This document shows positions 50,478-58,251 of a stretch of 64,000 bases of DNA, in pieces. The notes beneath the pieces are model-generated. The model was not told the origin of the DNA, did no database searches, and saw only the letters and a program-made list of their open reading frames with translations. Location: the IMG/VR virus record IMGVR_UViG_3300025000_000057. One strand, 5' to 3'. Within the stretch, counting starts at the first letter, position 1. Each line of letters starts with the position of its first letter. Source of the DNA: a virus. Taxonomy: Duplodnaviria; Caudoviricetes. A program made the position numbers and the translations under genes.

Positions 50478-50515
50478 GTTCACTTCTATTGTTGAGATAA
50501 ACAATAGAAGTGAAC
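50478..50515. promoter_or_regulatory. TGTT-N6-AACA hairpin H1
   Basis: GTTCACTTCTATTGTT-GAGATA-AACAATAGAAGTGAAC, followed by ATATAT and an RBS. Confidence 0.7.
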
Positions 50516-50532: not shown

Positions 50533-50814
50533 ATGAAAGACTTATACTGGCTATGCCTATGTGGTACTTGCTTATATTATACCTGTGTTTTATCACGCAA
50601 TATGGGCAATGTGAGTGATATACCTTGCGAGGATTGCCTAACTTATAAAGATAATAGTAGGTATCATGAATTTAAGAAACCTATACCATGGCATAAGTGT
50701 ATAACATGTAAGAATCTTTCAGAGTTTATTAATCATTCTGGCAATTGTTATACATGTATAAAAGCCTATATGAATTCAGATACACTGGTTTATTATAAAG
50801 GAGGTATACTATGA
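50533..50814 (+). CDS. 9-Cys paralog P7
   Basis: CGTCLYYTC...PCEDC...YHEFKKPIPWHKCITC...CYTC. Confidence 0.8.
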   Translation: MKDLYWLCLCGTCLYYTCVLSRNMGNVSDIPCEDCLTYKDNSRYHEFKKPIPWHKCITCKNLSEFINHSGNCYTCIKAYMNSDTLVYYKGGIL

Positions 50815-51605
50815 AGAGTTTACCATGGGTTGATTTCACACGTCGTAACGATCCGGCGCATCCATTCGGGCCCGTACTGCTGCAAAAGAGTCTTGATAGG
50901 TACGGTGCATATGTTTTCTGTTTCTGGACTAAGAATCCTGGTACTGTTGCTGATTTATATCGTAATCAGATAAGTCAAATGATGTCCAAAGATACACTCG
51001 TACTGGCGCAGGTGACACTTAATAATTATTCCAGTATAATGGAGCCGGGTGTTCCGAGTTTTAATACACGCTATCAAGGATTGGATAGATTACTTCGCCT
51101 AATTGGAGGGCCTGGGCATATTAAGCTCAGAATCGATCCTATTATCTTAGGTTATACTACTCCTAACATGATCCGCACCTCCCTAGAGGCTGGACGTAGT
51201 TTGGGTATACGCAGGTTTGTTATGAACTTCTTAGTACCTAGCTATAAAGGCGTAGGTAATATACTTATTCATAGAGGTTTGATACGACCTAATGACCTTA
51301 CTCCATCTCAAGAACGTATCCTTAGTACGGCTCGCTTTGTTTCCGAAGAGGCACAACGAGTAGGAGCTATTCTACAGGTATGTGCCGAAAGTAACTGGAT
51401 TGGTCAACATGTATCTGGCATTCAAATAGCATCATGTTCAGATCCGACTTGGGCTACACAGGTTAGACCCGAGTTAACCGGTATCTTTAAAGCAAATCCA
51501 TCCCGTAAAGACTGTGGTTGTTGTTACTCGGCCGACTGGGGAGTGTATGCTTCACGAGGTGGATATGTTTGCCCAGGAGGTTGTTTATACTGTTACGCTC
51601 AGTAA
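50811..51605 (+). CDS. DUF1848-like (spore-photoproduct-lyase-related, C-terminal CxxxCxxC) protein
   Basis: TRRNDP...FWTKNP...T.NNY...EPGVP...RIDPI...CAE...SC...R..CGC..S.D.G.Y...CPGGCLYCYA. Confidence 0.7.
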   Translation: MKSLPWVDFTRRNDPAHPFGPVLLQKSLDRYGAYVFCFWTKNPGTVADLYRNQISQMMSKDTLVLAQVTLNNYSSIMEPGVPSFNTRYQGLDRLLRLIGGPGHIKLRIDPIILGYTTPNMIRTSLEAGRSLGIRRFVMNFLVPSYKGVGNILIHRGLIRPNDLTPSQERILSTARFVSEEAQRVGAILQVCAESNWIGQHVSGIQIASCSDPTWATQVRPELTGIFKANPSRKDCGCCYSADWGVYASRGGYVCPGGCLYCYAQ

Positions 51606-51614
51606 CACCAACAG

Positions 51615-51654
51615 TTATTATACCCACTGTTGACTGCAACAGTGGGTATAATAA
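51615..51654. promoter_or_regulatory. TGTT-N6-AACA hairpin H2
   Basis: TTATTATACCCACTGTT-GACTGC-AACAGTGGGTATAATAA, followed by TATATA and an RBS. Confidence 0.7.
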
Positions 51655-51682: not shown

Positions 51683-51994
51683 ATGGCTAATAATACTGCC
51701 ATGGATAAAACAATTGCCGTACTAACTGCGCTTCGGGCTGGTCAGGAAGTTCTTATTGGTGACTACATTTTCGTTTATGATGAAGAAGATGATAAAATTG
51801 GTATTCTAGTTGATGTACATGATGCATCTAAGGGTGAGGATTATCAAGCAATACACTTCTTAGCTGACAACTTTAGTATCCAATGGCTGATGAATGCCTG
51901 TAATAAGATGTCTAATGGAGATCTCCTTATATTGACAGCAACAAAGGTACTTACTTCACTGAATAAGAGGAGGGATACCAAATGCGCGAAGTAA
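51683..51994 (+). CDS. Hypothetical protein
   Basis: AAAGGAGG RBS, 103 aa. Confidence 0.75.
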   Translation: MANNTAMDKTIAVLTALRAGQEVLIGDYIFVYDEEDDKIGILVDVHDASKGEDYQAIHFLADNFSIQWLMNACNKMSNGDLLILTATKVLTSLNKRRDTKCAK

Positions 51995-53655
51995 CCGGTG
52001 ATATATTTGAAATTGGTCGTTACGGTATTATCTGTGTTACCACTAATGGCGTCGTTAAGAAGGACGGCGCCTTGGTTATGGGTAAGGGAGTTGCTCTTAA
52101 CTTTGCTAATAAGTTTCCCACTATGGCGGAAAAACTTGGTCAACTAGTTAAAGCAAACGGTAACCATGTATACAGTCTCGGTTCGTTAGTACCAATAGAC
52201 GATCCGAGTATAAGTTATACTGTTGTTAGCTTCCCCACTAAGGCACATTGGCGCGACAACTCTACTGTTGCACTGGTTACTAAATCGGCTGCTGAGTTAA
52301 AAGCACTTGCTGATTCCCAAGCTTGGCCCGGGCCTATATACCTACCGGTTCCCGGATGTGGTAATGGAGGTCTTAACTGGGGAGAATTGAAACAGTTATT
52401 GCCATCTTATCTTGATGATAGATTTGTAATTGTTCACTATAGTAACTCTGTGCAACAAAATACACAACCCGCTGCTCAGCCGGGTACCCAAGTAACTACT
52501 CAGACTACCACTCTTGAATGTAGCTCTCAAGGAGATAATCGGTTCAGCGCATTTGGCGCACATGTAAATGCGCTTGGCAATAAGATAGAGATGCTCTATC
52601 AAGAGGCTAAACGTTTTACCGATGACCCAAATGAGGGCCCGACCGATTGGAGAAATGCCAAGGGCCGGCCGGTAGTGGCCGTAAGTCTTAATGGTAAGAG
52701 GTTTGGGCCTGAATATCTTACACCGTGGTACTGGTATCTTTGGACTCGGTATTTCCTTGAGAATCCAGATTTATTACAATACGCTCGTCAATTTAATACT
52801 TTTACGGATATGTTCCGTGGTAAGAGTACGAACTGCCAGGCAGATGTAATTGCATTCATGGCTAAGAATGGCCTTAATCCAATAATGGCTAAACCAGCAT
52901 ATCAAGAGATTGATCAATTATTCAATCTTAATTACTTATTTAAGAATCCTACACCGGAGCCGGGTGCTACTCCTGTATATATGTTAAATAGAACTATCAA
53001 AGAGGGATGTAGTGATATTCTCACATGTATGGTTACCGGTCACCGCCCGAATGGTATTAATGGGAAAGCCGGCTGGAACTTTGGAGATTCTCGTAATCAA
53101 AAGTTAATCACATACTTATCCACAGTTGTTAATAAGATGGCTATGGAGAATGGTACCCGGATATTCATAGAGGGAATAGCAGCTGGCGGAGATTTGTTAT
53201 TTACCAGAGCTGTACTTGATGTGAGTCATTTGCATCCGGAGTATAACCTGCAGCTTTGGAACTACATCCCGTATCCATGTGCGCCGGATAGACTTAAGTA
53301 TCAATGGAAAGCAGTTCTTGATAGCGCATTAAACCATCCAGGTGAGACAGTAATATGTAGTCCTGACCCTGTTGGTAAAGATGATAAAGAGCAGCGCATT
53401 GATGCAGCTAAGAAACTCTTCTATCGTAATGAGTGTATGGTGCGTACGTTACCCGTTCTTCCGAATGTCGGTATGATTATTGCCATATATTCAGGTTTAC
53501 AACCCGGGTTATATGCTATCGAGCAAATCGCTCAGCTAATGGATCCAAAGACCAAGGGTGGTACAGCTAATACACTCTTGACAGCTGTTAAGAGATGGAA
53601 AGAGGATAAGAACTTTCAACCTAAGATTCTCGTTGTCAATCCTAACAACTTCTAA
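51982..53655 (+). CDS. Macrodomain - NADAR-like - SLOG(YspA-like) triple fusion
   Basis: GDIF...CVTTNG.....LVMG.GVAL...FPTK.HW...PGCGNGGLNW (macro); LECSS.GD.RFSAF...IE..YQ.AK.F...DWR.AKG (NADAR-like); VTGHRP...GIAAGGDLLF...F.RNECMV...Y.G...GGTANT (SLOG). Confidence 0.7.
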   Translation: MREVTGDIFEIGRYGIICVTTNGVVKKDGALVMGKGVALNFANKFPTMAEKLGQLVKANGNHVYSLGSLVPIDDPSISYTVVSFPTKAHWRDNSTVALVTKSAAELKALADSQAWPGPIYLPVPGCGNGGLNWGELKQLLPSYLDDRFVIVHYSNSVQQNTQPAAQPGTQVTTQTTTLECSSQGDNRFSAFGAHVNALGNKIEMLYQEAKRFTDDPNEGPTDWRNAKGRPVVAVSLNGKRFGPEYLTPWYWYLWTRYFLENPDLLQYARQFNTFTDMFRGKSTNCQADVIAFMAKNGLNPIMAKPAYQEIDQLFNLNYLFKNPTPEPGATPVYMLNRTIKEGCSDILTCMVTGHRPNGINGKAGWNFGDSRNQKLITYLSTVVNKMAMENGTRIFIEGIAAGGDLLFTRAVLDVSHLHPEYNLQLWNYIPYPCAPDRLKYQWKAVLDSALNHPGETVICSPDPVGKDDKEQRIDAAKKLFYRNECMVRTLPVLPNVGMIIAIYSGLQPGLYAIEQIAQLMDPKTKGGTANTLLTAVKRWKEDKNFQPKILVVNPNNF

Positions 53656-53666
53656 GGAGGCATAAC

Positions 53667-54569
53667 ATGACTATATTAAGAAAACCACACGGTTCAGCTC
53701 AGTTATTAGCTGAGAATCGTGCTAGTCTAGTGATTGAACAGATGACAATAACCCCGCTATTTCCGGCGGGGTTTACCTTTACCGGTACTTCCGGCGCAGC
53801 TGAAGTAATCGCTCATGGGCAATATGTCATGGGCAACGAAGAGCAGACTAAGATTACAGTACCGACATATATGGTTCGTACCGGAGATGGTAGAGAGGTA
53901 GCTTGTCGTACCCGCCACATCTTGAGTAATCTCAGTGGTTGTGAGATAGAGCATTTACCAGAGCGAGAGCATATTGCACTTGTTGAATTTGATAAATGTC
54001 AATTCTTAATAGACCCTTTCGGCAAAGGTACACAGATAGACGACCCTACATTTCATGTGTTGTATACGGACAGTTACGGTTGGCCTATACATGATGTTGT
54101 ATTAAGAGCTGTAGCTCGTTTGGTACATTTCATAGATGATATACCACCATTAGGTAGTCCATTTATTCGTATAGCTAATAGTACTAATTGTGCAAACTGC
54201 GGAGCTATAAGAAGATTAAGTACTACCGATGCCGTAATGGGTGATGTTGCAGCCAATATGTACAGTACAGGCACTTGGGATAAGTCAGGCCCGAATAAGA
54301 ATAATATACATTGCTCATGGCTAGGCAACCCGAACCCGGAGTGGGAGTTAATTTGTCAAACTAAAAACAGAGCTTTCTCTAGGGATGAGAAGAGACCTGA
54401 AGCGTGGCTTAATGATATAAATCATAATTGTGCTAAGTTTTACAACGATGATTCACCTGTGAATTTCGCTGGACTTGTCATAGAACGGGATGATAAAACC
54501 GGCTGTACTTATATTGAGGTGCCTGGTTGGGATATTGAAATGTACGAGAATTATACACGTAAGGCGTAG
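53667..54569 (+). CDS. Hypothetical protein with Cys-rich C-terminal half
   Basis: AAGGAGG RBS; NCANC...HCSW...C...HNC. Confidence 0.75.
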   Translation: MTILRKPHGSAQLLAENRASLVIEQMTITPLFPAGFTFTGTSGAAEVIAHGQYVMGNEEQTKITVPTYMVRTGDGREVACRTRHILSNLSGCEIEHLPEREHIALVEFDKCQFLIDPFGKGTQIDDPTFHVLYTDSYGWPIHDVVLRAVARLVHFIDDIPPLGSPFIRIANSTNCANCGAIRRLSTTDAVMGDVAANMYSTGTWDKSGPNKNNIHCSWLGNPNPEWELICQTKNRAFSRDEKRPEAWLNDINHNCAKFYNDDSPVNFAGLVIERDDKTGCTYIEVPGWDIEMYENYTRKA

Positions 54570-54571
54570 AG

Positions 54572-54605
54572 TTAAGGCCGCTGTTGAAACAAACAGCGGC
54601 CTTAA
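54572..54605. promoter_or_regulatory. TGTT-N6-AACA hairpin H3
   Basis: TTAAGGCCGCTGTT-GAAACA-AACAGCGGCCTTAA, followed by TATATA and an RBS. Confidence 0.7.
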
Positions 54606-54633: not shown

Positions 54634-57093
54634 ATGGCACTTAGTAGTAGAAGAAGAGGTTCCGGCGTTATAATAGAGAGAACCGATGAAGAAAGAAACA
54701 GAAAAGACACGGAAGGTATTTCAATCGTGTTAAACAGTAATCACTCTGTGTATACCACAAACCGTCGGGTAGACGAGAATTGGATTAAAGTACGTCCGTT
54801 CTTTCCCGAGGATTTACCGGTTGACACCTGGGCTAAAGATGGCGCTTGTTGCAGCCTGTTACGCAGCTCTAGAATTATTGAGAACCCTGAGCATTTAGAG
54901 AAATGGATGCAAGAAGGTGCTTACTCTAAGCTCGAACACCGTATTAAGAAAGAAATCCAGCAAGCTCAATACGCTGGTGTAATATCCGAACACGACTATA
55001 TTCTGATGGAAGATAGTATGGGTACCGGAGATACATTTGATATATTAGTAGCTCATACTTGTTTGAATAAAGCTCGTTATGCTTTAAATACAGTCTTACT
55101 TAAGAAAGAGGCTGAACGTAAAGCAGCAGAGGCTAAGAAAGAAGCAGAGACTAATGCGCCTATCGTAACGAATTATCATAAGCTAAATCCAATTGCTACT
55201 CCTAAAGTTACCTATATAGATTTGCCTAAGTATTGCGATCCGGTCTTAACTGATAACTACTTACACAGACGTTACATGGCTCACCTAGATAGCCTTGGCA
55301 CCTGGAAAGGTAACGTTCTTGATGAATTACCGCCACTCGAATGGGGTAACAATCCGGCCCCTAAAATGTATTCAGAGACTAAAGGTGGATATCGTAACCG
55401 CACCAACCTTAGAGGTCTTGTGCTTGAGCATCCTAATATGTTCATCTTCGAGGCTTACAAAATCGTTCAGATGAAAGACGATCAAATCGGTGTAAGCGGA
55501 ACAGAATCGATCTATAAGAGTGATGGTAGTGTTAAGAGAAAACGTAGAATAGTTCCTATCGAAGAGTTATCTTACGAAGGAACTCCTATACTTGATTATA
55601 TAAGAAGTGTAGCTCCTACCTCGATTCAAGATAGTAGCCGTCATAACGAAGAGCTGTTTACTAAGAGTGAAGAGTGTCCTATTACCGAACGTGATGATGT
55701 TTATGTACATGCTGGCTTTGGTTTTGTAACACTCGTACGTATGACTAACAATGGTAAAGTAATCGTTCGTCGACTGGTTGATGATGAACGCGACTTAGTT
55801 GGTACTAAGTTTGACATCTATATGGAAATGCATTCTCAGAATGCTGTCAATCAGTTACCTGGAGAAATGGGTGTCCATATTGTAGAGTATTCAGAAATCA
55901 TACCTATTAAGAACTTGGTAGAGATCGGTATGAATAATAAAGAACTGTATCAGGTCTGTAATGTAAGACTTGCCACAAATGATAAAGAAGCTACAATTAT
56001 GGCCCGCCAGCCGGCTAAAGGTCTTGACGAGTTTGTTTATATTGTTAGCAACTTACCACTCAGACCAAAGCTCGATCTTTACAGCAAGGTACCAGTCCGT
56101 GATATCAATGGAGATTTGATGCTTCATAATGGTCAACCTATCTTAATCCATCCTCAAAAGAGTAAGATTATCAAAAAGTATGATGCTACTCTTAACATCA
56201 CAGTTGAACAAAGAGTACAAGCTTGGGAGCCACCAAGCGTCCTGGTTATAGGAGAAGAGAGTGGCAAACTAAGCGTAGTACCAGCTGCTTGGTTATATAA
56301 ACTCACCGGAAATACCAATTATATACCATTCTCAACAACCCGTAGTTACGATTCCGCTACTAAACGAATGGTTCCAATTACTGTTCGTTATCCAGAAATA
56401 CCTAGTGTATCTGCATGGGAGGATAGAAACGTATTTGACCATCACTTGTTTACTATGAAGATGAGAGCTGCAGCTAAAGGTAAACCCGAGCCTGGTAGTT
56501 TCTCAATCTTACCAACTCCAGCACCTGGTGAAGATTATCGCACAGTTCTTCCTATCCGTGAGAAATTCGTAAACTTCGAGCCATACAGATGGGTAGACCC
56601 CAAGAAACAAGTAAACATTCTTGACAGCCATATAGACGGTTATAATCCGGAAGATACTGGTTGGGATACCGAATGGCAATTTAGAGCACACGAGCCGGGC
56701 GACTGGATAGCAGAAGCTAGTATAGCTGAGGTATTCGCAGTAGCCGCTCCTAGTCATGAGAGGATCATGGCTAACACAAACCAAGAGGCATGGTACTGGA
56801 CTTACAATGCTTGCACAGCAAGACAGGCTGGTATCGATAATCTGGCGCTCAATTGGACAACTCCTGCGAGTAATGGTATAATTGCTACAGTGACATGTAA
56901 CATTGATAGCCATCCTATAACCGCTAATATACAGGTCGTTAAACCTGGTGAGATTGGTTTTGACGCAGGCCTTACTAATGAGCAAACAGCATTTATCTTA
57001 AGATTCGTAAGTTATAAACATGCAGAGGCTCGCGCAATGAGATTACAGCAACAAGATACAGCACAAGTTGCGGTGTCGTTAAAAGACCGTTAA
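54634..57093 (+). CDS. Large hypothetical protein (819 aa)
   Basis: AAAAGGAGG RBS; no domain recognised. Confidence 0.8.
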   Translation: MALSSRRRGSGVIIERTDEERNRKDTEGISIVLNSNHSVYTTNRRVDENWIKVRPFFPEDLPVDTWAKDGACCSLLRSSRIIENPEHLEKWMQEGAYSKLEHRIKKEIQQAQYAGVISEHDYILMEDSMGTGDTFDILVAHTCLNKARYALNTVLLKKEAERKAAEAKKEAETNAPIVTNYHKLNPIATPKVTYIDLPKYCDPVLTDNYLHRRYMAHLDSLGTWKGNVLDELPPLEWGNNPAPKMYSETKGGYRNRTNLRGLVLEHPNMFIFEAYKIVQMKDDQIGVSGTESIYKSDGSVKRKRRIVPIEELSYEGTPILDYIRSVAPTSIQDSSRHNEELFTKSEECPITERDDVYVHAGFGFVTLVRMTNNGKVIVRRLVDDERDLVGTKFDIYMEMHSQNAVNQLPGEMGVHIVEYSEIIPIKNLVEIGMNNKELYQVCNVRLATNDKEATIMARQPAKGLDEFVYIVSNLPLRPKLDLYSKVPVRDINGDLMLHNGQPILIHPQKSKIIKKYDATLNITVEQRVQAWEPPSVLVIGEESGKLSVVPAAWLYKLTGNTNYIPFSTTRSYDSATKRMVPITVRYPEIPSVSAWEDRNVFDHHLFTMKMRAAAKGKPEPGSFSILPTPAPGEDYRTVLPIREKFVNFEPYRWVDPKKQVNILDSHIDGYNPEDTGWDTEWQFRAHEPGDWIAEASIAEVFAVAAPSHERIMANTNQEAWYWTYNACTARQAGIDNLALNWTTPASNGIIATVTCNIDSHPITANIQVVKPGEIGFDAGLTNEQTAFILRFVSYKHAEARAMRLQQQDTAQVAVSLKDR

Positions 57094-57420: not shown

Positions 57421-58251
57421 ATGGCTAAGGAAGCTAACTTGAATAACGTTACGCAACAGATTATTGATGCACTTAAAGTTCACGGATTTAAGATACAGTA
57501 TTATAAGAGTTACTCTACTAATAGCTTTTATCTAAAGTTAGATTATGGAGTATCTCATAGTATAAGGATAAGTGACCATAAAGGGAAGAGTCATCTTAAC
57601 TATCGTTTTAATATCGGGCCTCATATCACCGATTACGAAGTTCGTAAGACACCTCCACCGGATTACTGGCCAATGTACTTCTATCCAATAACACAGTTTA
57701 AGCGCATGATTCAGCAGATAGTTCAGGTACGGGATAATGTAATAAAGAAATACGGGAAGGAAAGGTATAAAACTCTTATGCAGACAAATCTAGAGAAGAA
57801 CCAGCATAAGAGAGGCTTTTGGGCTCAGAGTAAAGAACTATGGGAGGGAGATATCATGACCGGTAAGGGTAAATTCATTACATGTCATATGAGTCAGCTA
57901 TCAAGAATTGATGCTGATATTAAAATTGCTGGTACTATTAAACAGATTAACAGTTCCGATATTCTATGGATTCCGCAGCTAGGCCCGGATGAAGAGTTAT
58001 TTAACATGTTTAAGGATTGGAAAGAGGCTGGTAAGTGGCCCGAAATGTGGCCTGAATATCTAGTTCGCTTTCAAAAGTTAATGACCGGCCCGGTTATGCT
58101 GCCGTATTTAAACCGGTTAAAGCTAAGGCTAAGCGAGGGTAAGAAGATTGCTTTTGGTTGTTTTTGCGCTAAGAAAGATGTTCTGTTCTGCCATCGCAGT
58201 ATAGTAGCTGACGATATGAAAAATAGTGGCTTTGAAATTATATTAGGCTAG
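57421..58251 (+). CDS. Two-domain protein with C-terminal DUF488-like domain
   Basis: N-terminal YLKLDYG...SIRISDH.G; C-terminal W.PQLGP..ELF..FK.W...W.EY..RF...L...L...GCFC......CHRSIVA. Confidence 0.65.
   Translation: MAKEANLNNVTQQIIDALKVHGFKIQYYKSYSTNSFYLKLDYGVSHSIRISDHKGKSHLNYRFNIGPHITDYEVRKTPPPDYWPMYFYPITQFKRMIQQIVQVRDNVIKKYGKERYKTLMQTNLEKNQHKRGFWAQSKELWEGDIMTGKGKFITCHMSQLSRIDADIKIAGTIKQINSSDILWIPQLGPDEELFNMFKDWKEAGKWPEMWPEYLVRFQKLMTGPVMLPYLNRLKLRLSEGKKIAFGCFCAKKDVLFCHRSIVADDMKNSGFEIILG

Follow-up and report, generated by a model that had tools for sequence, protein, structure and literature searches.

What a phage might gain from joining a macrodomain, a NADAR domain and a SLOG domain in one polypeptide is the question raised by a gene on the 64,000-nucleotide stretch of viral DNA analyzed here (IMG/VR record IMGVR_UViG_3300025000_000057, hereafter the window), which belongs to a roughly 219-kb jumbo myovirus from groundwater. 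The gene, located at positions 51982-53655 of the plus strand, is a single open reading frame (ORF) of 557 amino acids (aa) according to the ORF list and its translation. We consider it reasonably probable that its product, hereafter the fusion protein, is an orphan, antitoxin-like and bivalent DNA ADP-ribosylglycohydrolase, which removes both thymine- and guanine-linked ADP-ribose from the single-stranded DNA (ssDNA) of the phage, with the SLOG domain as an accessory module.

The Macro-NADAR-SLOG gene is real. Its ATG is preceded by a strong ribosome-binding site, and the same protein recurs letter for letter on 17 contigs of up to 219-220 kb, which come from several groundwater samples and include NCBI assembly GCA_902725955.1 (CACUYJ010000001.1); the fusion is therefore not an assembly chimera. 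Furthermore, full-length relatives were found at 28-36% identity. In a full-length AlphaFold2 (AF2) model, with a mean predicted local distance difference test (pLDDT) value of 85.6, the protein is resolved into three confidently predicted domains that are joined by disordered linkers. The predicted template modelling score (pTM) of this model is 0.48, so the inter-domain geometry is unreliable and no claim is made on contacts between the domains. Small and modular, the protein also looks soluble. The three domain assignments of an earlier note on this DNA, made from the sequence alone, proved right, as macrodomain, NADAR and SLOG were each verified independently by sequence models and by fold. 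As to the Q/T/P linker which that note described, a Q/T-rich linker lies between macrodomain and NADAR (seven T and six Q over residues 153-177), and a second and different linker precedes the SLOG domain. The gene and its component features are as follows:

51969-51973, plus strand: ribosome-binding site GGAGG, 8 nt 5' of the fusion-gene ATG (direct reading of the sequence)
51982-53655, plus strand: Macro-NADAR-SLOG fusion gene, 557 aa, TAA stop included (ORF list, translation)
51982-52446, plus strand: DarG/AdfM-type macrodomain, aa 1-155 (DarG models, fold, alignment)
52045-52047, plus strand: macrodomain N22 (8-sequence alignment)
52240-52242, plus strand: macrodomain K87 of the FPTK motif (8-sequence alignment)
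52447-52497, plus strand: linker 1, Q/T-rich and disordered, aa 156-172 (pLDDT <50, composition)
52498-52926, plus strand: compact NADAR, aa 173-315 (PF22397, profile, AF2 fold)
52588-52590, plus strand: NADAR E203 (profile alignment to 8BAT)
52609-52611, plus strand: NADAR K210 (profile alignment to 8BAT)
52660-52662, plus strand: NADAR K227 (profile alignment to 8BAT)
52807-52809, plus strand: NADAR D276 (profile alignment to 8BAT)
52927-53004, plus strand: linker 2, disordered, aa 316-341, between NADAR and SLOG and different from linker 1 (pLDDT <50)
53005-53652, plus strand: SLOG domain of the YpsA clade, aa 342-557 (profile, fold)
53191-53193, plus strand: codon of D404 in the SLOG GxD motif G402-G403-D404 (alignment)

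The macrodomain is most similar to those of the DarG proteins. Its Pfam Macro score falls just below the cut-off, while DarG-specific models match this part of the protein (NCBIfam NF048014, E 1e-20; PADLOC DarG, E 9e-21), and a phmmer search against the PDB returned DarG macrodomains only (5M3I, 5M31 and 7OMU, E 1e-10). The modelled fold is in agreement: the closest structure is the Mycobacterium tuberculosis DarG macrodomain 5M3I (Z 18.9, rmsd 1.9 Å over 141 aa, 28% identity), followed by 7OMU from Thermosipho DarTG (Z 17.5) and then TARG1 (Z 15.4), and the top Swiss-Prot fold matches are the DarG proteins of M. tuberculosis, enteropathogenic Escherichia coli and Thermus aquaticus. Among phage proteins, the domain is 26% identical (E 3e-12) to gp104 of phage PhiKZ, also known as AdfM, which strips DNA of the ADP-ribose added by DarT2 and rescues cells from this toxin (PMC13309987). 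Mutation of N23 of AdfM lowers its activity (PMC13309987); the aligned residue is N22, and both N22 and K87 are invariant in eight sequences, including PhiKZ gp104, although the HMMER alignment of the N22 stretch to 5M3I is of low confidence. In 5M3I and 5M31, the residue paired with K87 is the first Lys of FPTKKHW, and the offset of 7 in the DarG profile places K87 at position ~80; by alignment it is thus the equivalent of the catalytic Lys, K80, of T. aquaticus DarG, which lies in an FPTK-x-W motif.

The domain thus shares with AdfM and DarG the macro fold, the VMGxG, FPTK-x-W and GC-x-NGGL motifs (its own glycine loops read VMGKG at residues 32-36 and PGCGNGGL at 124-131), the Asn of AdfM and the catalytic Lys of DarG, and, like AdfM, it is borne by a phage as an orphan with no adjacent DarT. 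It differs from both in a six-residue hairpin insert after N22, and from AdfM in forming the N-terminal third of a 557-aa protein, whereas an AdfM-type protein comprises ~160 aa. Bacterial DarG possesses a C-terminal DarT-binding domain, which the fusion protein does not have. The full-length DarG equivalog NF048014 reaches 74 bits where 250 are required, the macro part alone accounts for the match and no DarT was detected in the flanking ORFs; for these reasons the fusion protein is classed, by sequence, as DarG-like but not as a DarG.

The middle domain is assigned to the NADARs by sequence and by fold. Pfam family PF22397 (NADAR-DarT1) matches with 29 bits in the whole protein and 33 bits in the domain alone (cut-off 27), the match spanning positions 87-190 of the 212 in the profile. 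A 13-sequence profile of the domain returned one PDB match (E 2e-5), 8BAT, which is the NADAR antitoxin linked to DarT1 in Geobacter lovleyi. In a Foldseek search with an AF2 model of the domain alone (pLDDT 85.5, pTM 0.81), only 8BAT reached significance (E 1e-4, probability 1.0). In an exhaustive VIA-align comparison, the three solved NADAR structures rank first, i.e., 8BAT (Z 10.4), YbiA (2B3W, Z 6.6) and the NADAR of P. nicotianae (8BAU, Z 6.2), with the next structure at Z 3.5. The earlier note had allowed that the middle domain might not model as a NADAR, and this is not what was found.

The profile alignment to 8BAT pairs E203, K210, K227 and D276 with G. lovleyi residues E89, K96, K116 and D172 (numbered as 8BAT SEQRES minus a 20-residue tag). 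The same four residues correspond to E88, K95, K115 and D171 of the E. coli C7 NADAR, which are needed for guanine-ADP-ribose hydrolysis and for rescue from DarT1 (PMC11543638), and they are invariant in seven full-length or Macro-NADAR relatives. The residue on the last strand is Glu in YbiA, Asp in the BC4488/DarT-associated family and His in proteins of the T4 gp30.3 type (PMC11125620), the Asp signature being described as exclusive to the DarT-associated NADARs (PMC11125620). Since this residue is Asp (D276) in the fusion protein, its NADAR is classed on sequence grounds as DarG1-like and not gp30.3-like, and the comparison with T4 gp30.3 made in the earlier note was given up. The domain shares with the DarT1-associated NADARs (BC4488 family, 8BAT, E. 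coli C7) the YbiA-like fold, the E-x6-K motif, the last-strand Asp and the extra Lys. It resembles the phage AdfN proteins (T4 gp30.3, Bas32 and Bas60; PMC11825919) in being an orphan borne by a phage: no DarT match was obtained among the flanking ORFs, so that there is no operon with DarT1 there and the arrangement is that of AdfN, whose T4 gp30.3-type members have His in place of the Asp.

This NADAR belongs to a compact subfamily (phrog_9995) with the family-specific invariant motif LECSxxGDxRFSA. At ~140 aa, it is devoid of the N-terminal extension of DarG1, which consists of two small sheets and a helix: only ~28 residues precede E203, and the structural alignment begins at residue 48-50 of 8BAT. 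Stand-alone proteins of the subfamily, of ~120-150 aa, were found in at least 44 isolated phages, including Bacillus phage SP-15, Rhizobium phage 16-3 and Pseudomonas phage 201phi2-1, with none that is T4-like by tblastn of the domain, and at 59 IMG/VR loci. In Bacillus phage vB_BauM_KLEB27-3 (H50; OM634661.1, 189954-190325), the compact NADAR lies under a gene annotated as DUF4326, which fits the DUF4326 fusions of Iyer et al. 2022 (PMC9503650).

The C-terminal domain was recognized through its relatives. The SLOG sequence of the fusion protein itself has no Pfam match even at E 10, whereas 13 of 14 aligned relatives match PF06908 (best E 4e-32); an exhaustive phmmer search with the domain returned ten relatives only. 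A profile of the domain matches YpsA of Bacillus subtilis (2NX2, E 1e-15), and the modelled fold aligns with 2NX2 at Z 18.3 (rmsd 2.6 over 172 aa), followed by ShosA (Z 12.4), DprA (Z 11.5), LOG-like proteins (Z 9.5) and TRPM2 (Z 9.2). The sequence motifs comprise TGHRP at residues 352-356, GGT at 526-528 and the G402-G403-D404 motif, of which G402 and D404 do not vary among 14 sequences and are aligned with the GVE of YpsA; GxD/E is the ligand-pocket signature of the YpsA clade, represented in YpsA by G53 and E55 (PMC6459960). The domain is therefore like YpsA/UPF0398 (2NX2, PF06908) in its fold, in the GxD/E signature and in its TGHRP-type and GGT motifs, and unlike YpsA in its low identity (14%), in insertions at ~488-496 and 503-525 and in its fusion to two putative ADP-ribose hydrolases. 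The role of YpsA in cell division is thought to be specific to Firmicutes.

The term 'YspA-type' in the earlier note is explained by the Pfam description of PF06908, 'YspA SLOG family'. That note took the binding of NAD-derived nucleotides by such SLOG domains as established; in PMC6459960 and PMC9503650 it is a prediction for the clade. Its further suggestion, that ADP-ribose-type signals are scavenged, found no direct support here. The fold family includes the ssDNA-binding DprA as well as ADP-ribose-binding modules, and ssDNA tethering or ADP-ribose recognition are the putative tasks of the domain that we favour.

From the gene, the three folds and the conservation of residues known to be catalytic in characterized relatives, all of which were obtained directly, we infer the substrates, the role in vivo and the task of the SLOG domain. 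DarT-type toxins of the host would ADP-ribosylate bases of the phage ssDNA during infection and thereby block replication or packaging. The macrodomain would clear thymine-ADP-ribose, the mark of DarT2, by means of the FPTK Lys K87 together with N22, while the NADAR would clear ADP-ribose from N2 of guanine, the mark of DarT1, by means of E203, K210 and D276, with K227 in a supporting role. The flexible linkers would allow both erasers onto the same DNA. The SLOG domain would be an accessory to these two and engage a nucleotide moiety. Its most plausible task would be that of an ssDNA tether, in the manner of the related DprA fold; alternatively, it may bind or sense ligands of the ADP-ribose type.

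Both catalytic activities are established, in each case for single-domain phage proteins only, i.e., AdfM and AdfN. Phage NADARs from three unrelated lineages neutralize DarTG1 (PMC11825919), and AdfM is known from PhiKZ (gp104; PMC13309987) and from T4 (Tk.4; bioRxiv 10.1101/2025.11.20.689424). In T4, AdfN and AdfM are encoded by separate genes, both of which are needed to resist both DarTG classes (bioRxiv 10.1101/2025.11.20.689424). The claim of the earlier note that one protein neutralizes both classes is upheld in part, as the reading with the best support.

Several considerations weigh against this reading. The glycohydrolase activity of the fusion protein is predicted from sequence and models, and the presence of DarTG in the host of the phage is assumed. 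T4 AdfN and YbiA hydrolyse guanine-ADP-ribose in vitro, yet do not rescue cells from DarT1 (PMC11125620), which shows that fold and residues do not guarantee counter-defence. The N-terminal extension of ~50 residues that is absent here helps to form the putative DNA groove of the DarT1-linked NADARs, and no experimentally tested member of the compact subfamily was found. The check for an ADP-ribosyltransferase (ART) encoded by the phage itself covered five flanking ORFs of the whole 219-kb genome. Finally, the authors who catalogued fusions of Macro, NADAR and SLOG domains favoured soluble ADP-ribose derivatives as substrates (PMC9503650).

The three modules recur together in other proteins. 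The triple Macro-NADAR-SLOG fusion is represented by six clusters at 90% identity only, while pairwise fusions in the databases comprise Macro-NADAR (P0002, L010), Macro-SLOG (P0017), NADAR-SLOG (P0032) and SLOG-NADAR (P0007, P0016). All pairwise fusions thus occur, which indicates that the modules work together. A further set of proteins (P0008-P0015, 414-955 aa) carries two tandem compact NADARs, most of them fused to an N6/N4 DNA methyltransferase (PF01555). This fusion points to DNA as the substrate, and these proteins may be polyvalent anti-defence proteins that protect DNA.

At the locus itself, the fusion gene probably forms part of a short transcription unit. The features around it are as follows:

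50811-51605, window: DUF1848 gene, radical-SAM-like, with a C-terminal CxxxCxYC cluster
51620-51652, plus strand: hairpin with a TGTT-N6-AACA apex (51628-51641), then TATAAT; 30 nt 5' of orf103
51683-51994, plus strand: orf103, 103 aa, its stop overlapping the start of the fusion gene; no family match
53667-54569, plus strand: orf300, 300 aa, 11 nt 3' of the fusion-gene stop, with its own GGAGG
54582-54595, plus strand: next TGTT-N6-AACA hairpin apex, just 3' of orf300
57421-58251, window: DUF488-N3a gene

The gene orf103 is probably co-transcribed with the fusion gene. The hairpin at 51620-51652 probably marks the start of the unit; TTGACT lies in its loop and TATAAT only 11 nt downstream, which is not a canonical sigma-70 promoter. 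The apex at 54582-54595 would close a three-gene unit of orf103, the fusion gene and orf300. Such apices occur nine times in the window, where 1.35 would be expected, and lie in intergenic gaps, the others including those at 50490, 57375 and 58264.

Neither orf300 nor the 819-aa ORF downstream (54634-57093) could be assigned to a Pfam, PHROG or PADLOC family. The idea of orf300 as a hidden DarT-like toxin drew no support from these searches, nor from its Atlas model, which is of low quality (pLDDT 0.35) and has meaningless fold neighbours. A weak homologue of orf300 (22% identity, E 2e-5) occupies the equivalent place in another phage locus (L010), after a separate SLOG gene. Neither DarT nor any other ART was detected by family scans of the five flanking ORFs, as would be expected if the fusion protein is an orphan antitoxin. 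The DarT family PF14487 also had no match in the L010 record, a result that is uninformative since the control genomes were likewise without a match.

The phage nature of the window is evident from its minus-strand half, where the genes for the tail sheath, the portal, the terminase and major head proteins lie. The tail sheath is nearest (37%) to those of the Bacillus jumbo phage 0305phi8-36 and Moorella phage MTATph1, while a megablast search of the region against isolated phages returned no match, and the phage is known from metagenomes only.

The DUF1848 and DUF488-N3a genes accompany the three modules elsewhere. Both are found within a few kb of Macro, NADAR or SLOG in four divergent phages, i.e., in the window, at L010:4662-8403, at L071:2753-7698 and at L072:3489-7656, and the gene order in L010 is Macro-NADAR, DUF1848, DUF488, SLOG and an orf300-like gene. 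The DUF1848 protein had no match to the PDB by sequence, while the placement of DUF488-N3a in a rhodanese-phosphatase clade related to DUF4326 rests on Pfam names and on PMC9503650. In three relatives with the triple fusion (L071:1-2697, L072:1-2679 and L073:1-2801), a huge gene (1311-1457 aa) matching the Pfam RNA-dependent RNA polymerase (RdRP) family PF05183 lies 3-6 kb upstream, and presumably encodes a YonO-like single-subunit RNA polymerase. The T4-like Proteus phage PM2 (L114, NC_055727.1 87709-93137) possesses a homologous stand-alone macro gene, annotated as 'phosphatase', whose downstream neighbours include an RNA ligase gene at ~1 kb and a DprA-like (SLOG) gene at ~2.4 kb, and thus presents another Macro-SLOG neighbourhood.

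These contexts, together with the domain comparisons, also bear on other explanations of the fusion. It is conceivable, but in our view unlikely, that the protein serves as a multi-purpose tool against soluble ADP-ribose derivatives, which would cut diffusible NAD-derived immune signals or toxins (such as cyclic ADP-ribose isomers or ADP-ribose-1''-phosphate) and blunt Thoeris-like or TIR/sirtuin defences with no part in DNA repair; the three domains would then cut different bonds, and the SLOG domain would act as a binder, a sponge or an N-glycosidase. Such a function was proposed for the phage combinations of Macro, NADAR and SLOG by Iyer et al. 2022 (PMC9503650), and it is in line with the binding of ADP-ribose-type ligands by the SLOG domains of ThsA and TRPM2, the latter among the fold neighbours found here, and with the retention nearby of the DUF488-N3a gene. 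The nearest enzymes, however, act on ADP-ribosylated DNA bases, as DarG ranks above TARG1 and Poa1p, and the DarT1-linked NADAR above YbiA. The NADAR of the fusion protein furthermore bears the Asp signature of the DarT-associated family (PMC11125620), its sister NADARs are fused to DNA methyltransferases, and work since 2022 has demonstrated an action on DNA for phage Macro and NADAR proteins with a single domain. By comparison, it is very improbable that at least one of the domains is catalytically dead and that the protein only binds or senses ADP-ribose or ADP-ribosylated DNA. In one relative (P0011, L073:6001-7548) the macrodomain is degenerate, having lost the Asn, the FPTK Lys and one glycine loop, with NADAR and SLOG intact, so that modules can decay, and the YpsA-clade SLOG domains are without a known catalytic role; in the fusion protein, all residues known to be needed in DarG/AdfM and in the DarT1-linked NADARs are nevertheless present, and they are conserved across relatives at 30-45% identity.

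The recurrent neighbours raise the further idea of a phage pathway of nucleic-acid modification or repair, in which the fusion protein would process, together with DUF1848 and DUF488-N3a, an intermediate or lesion of the ribosyl or ADP-ribosyl type in the DNA or RNA of phage or host, or would act as an antidote to an ART of the phage itself, and thus would not be specific for DarT. The five families do stay close in the four divergent phages despite changes of order and fission or fusion, and the macro gene of PM2 lies near genes for an RNA ligase and a DprA-like protein. The four phages may simply share ancestry, however, given that L071, L072 and L073 have the RdRP-like gene upstream in common, and the association does not extend to other loci: at 38 further viral DUF1848 loci, no credible neighbour of the Macro, NADAR or SLOG type was seen and DUF488 lies nearby at two only, and any such partner is present at only ~9 of 61 stand-alone NADAR loci. 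As the five flanking ORFs moreover contain no detected ART, we regard such a pathway as quite improbable. Little credence is likewise given to a wider version of the anti-DarT function, according to which the fusion protein would be the core of a modular 'DNA-adduct eraser' island with DUF1848, DUF488-N3a and orf300; its SLOG domain would recognize ADP-ribosylated ssDNA or freed ADP-ribose and pass products to the neighbours, so that ADP-ribosylation of T, G and perhaps C would be reversed beyond the marks of DarT1 and DarT2. If true, this island would constitute a new multi-enzyme counter-defence pathway.

The bivalent DNA ADP-ribosylglycohydrolase is less novel than the earlier note assumed. 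A computational catalogue of phage fusions of Macro, NADAR and SLOG (and DUF4326), with their neighbourhoods, was presented in 2022 by Iyer, Burroughs, Anantharaman and Aravind (PMC9503650, Fig. 5h); the anti-DarT action of the single-domain factors AdfN and AdfM is proven, and T4 overcomes both DarTG classes with two genes. The fusion protein is of the same architecture class as the 2022 fusions, which in that source are known by prediction, with soluble ADP-ribose derivatives as main substrates. Since the concept is established by the AdfM and AdfN genes of T4 and by the catalogued fusions, the gain would be incremental rather than conceptual.

The fusion protein is probably a two-in-one countermeasure against bacterial DarTG, and the fused form of a strategy that has been demonstrated with separate genes in other phages. 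If this is true, it would provide a first functional handle on the compact phage NADAR subfamily phrog_9995, which is present on 60 or more viral contigs besides the isolated phages, and on the YpsA-clade SLOG domain, the ligand of which has been in question since 2015. A single polypeptide would then disarm both DarTG classes, and would show that phages build polyvalent counter-defence enzymes by fusion of orphan antitoxin modules.

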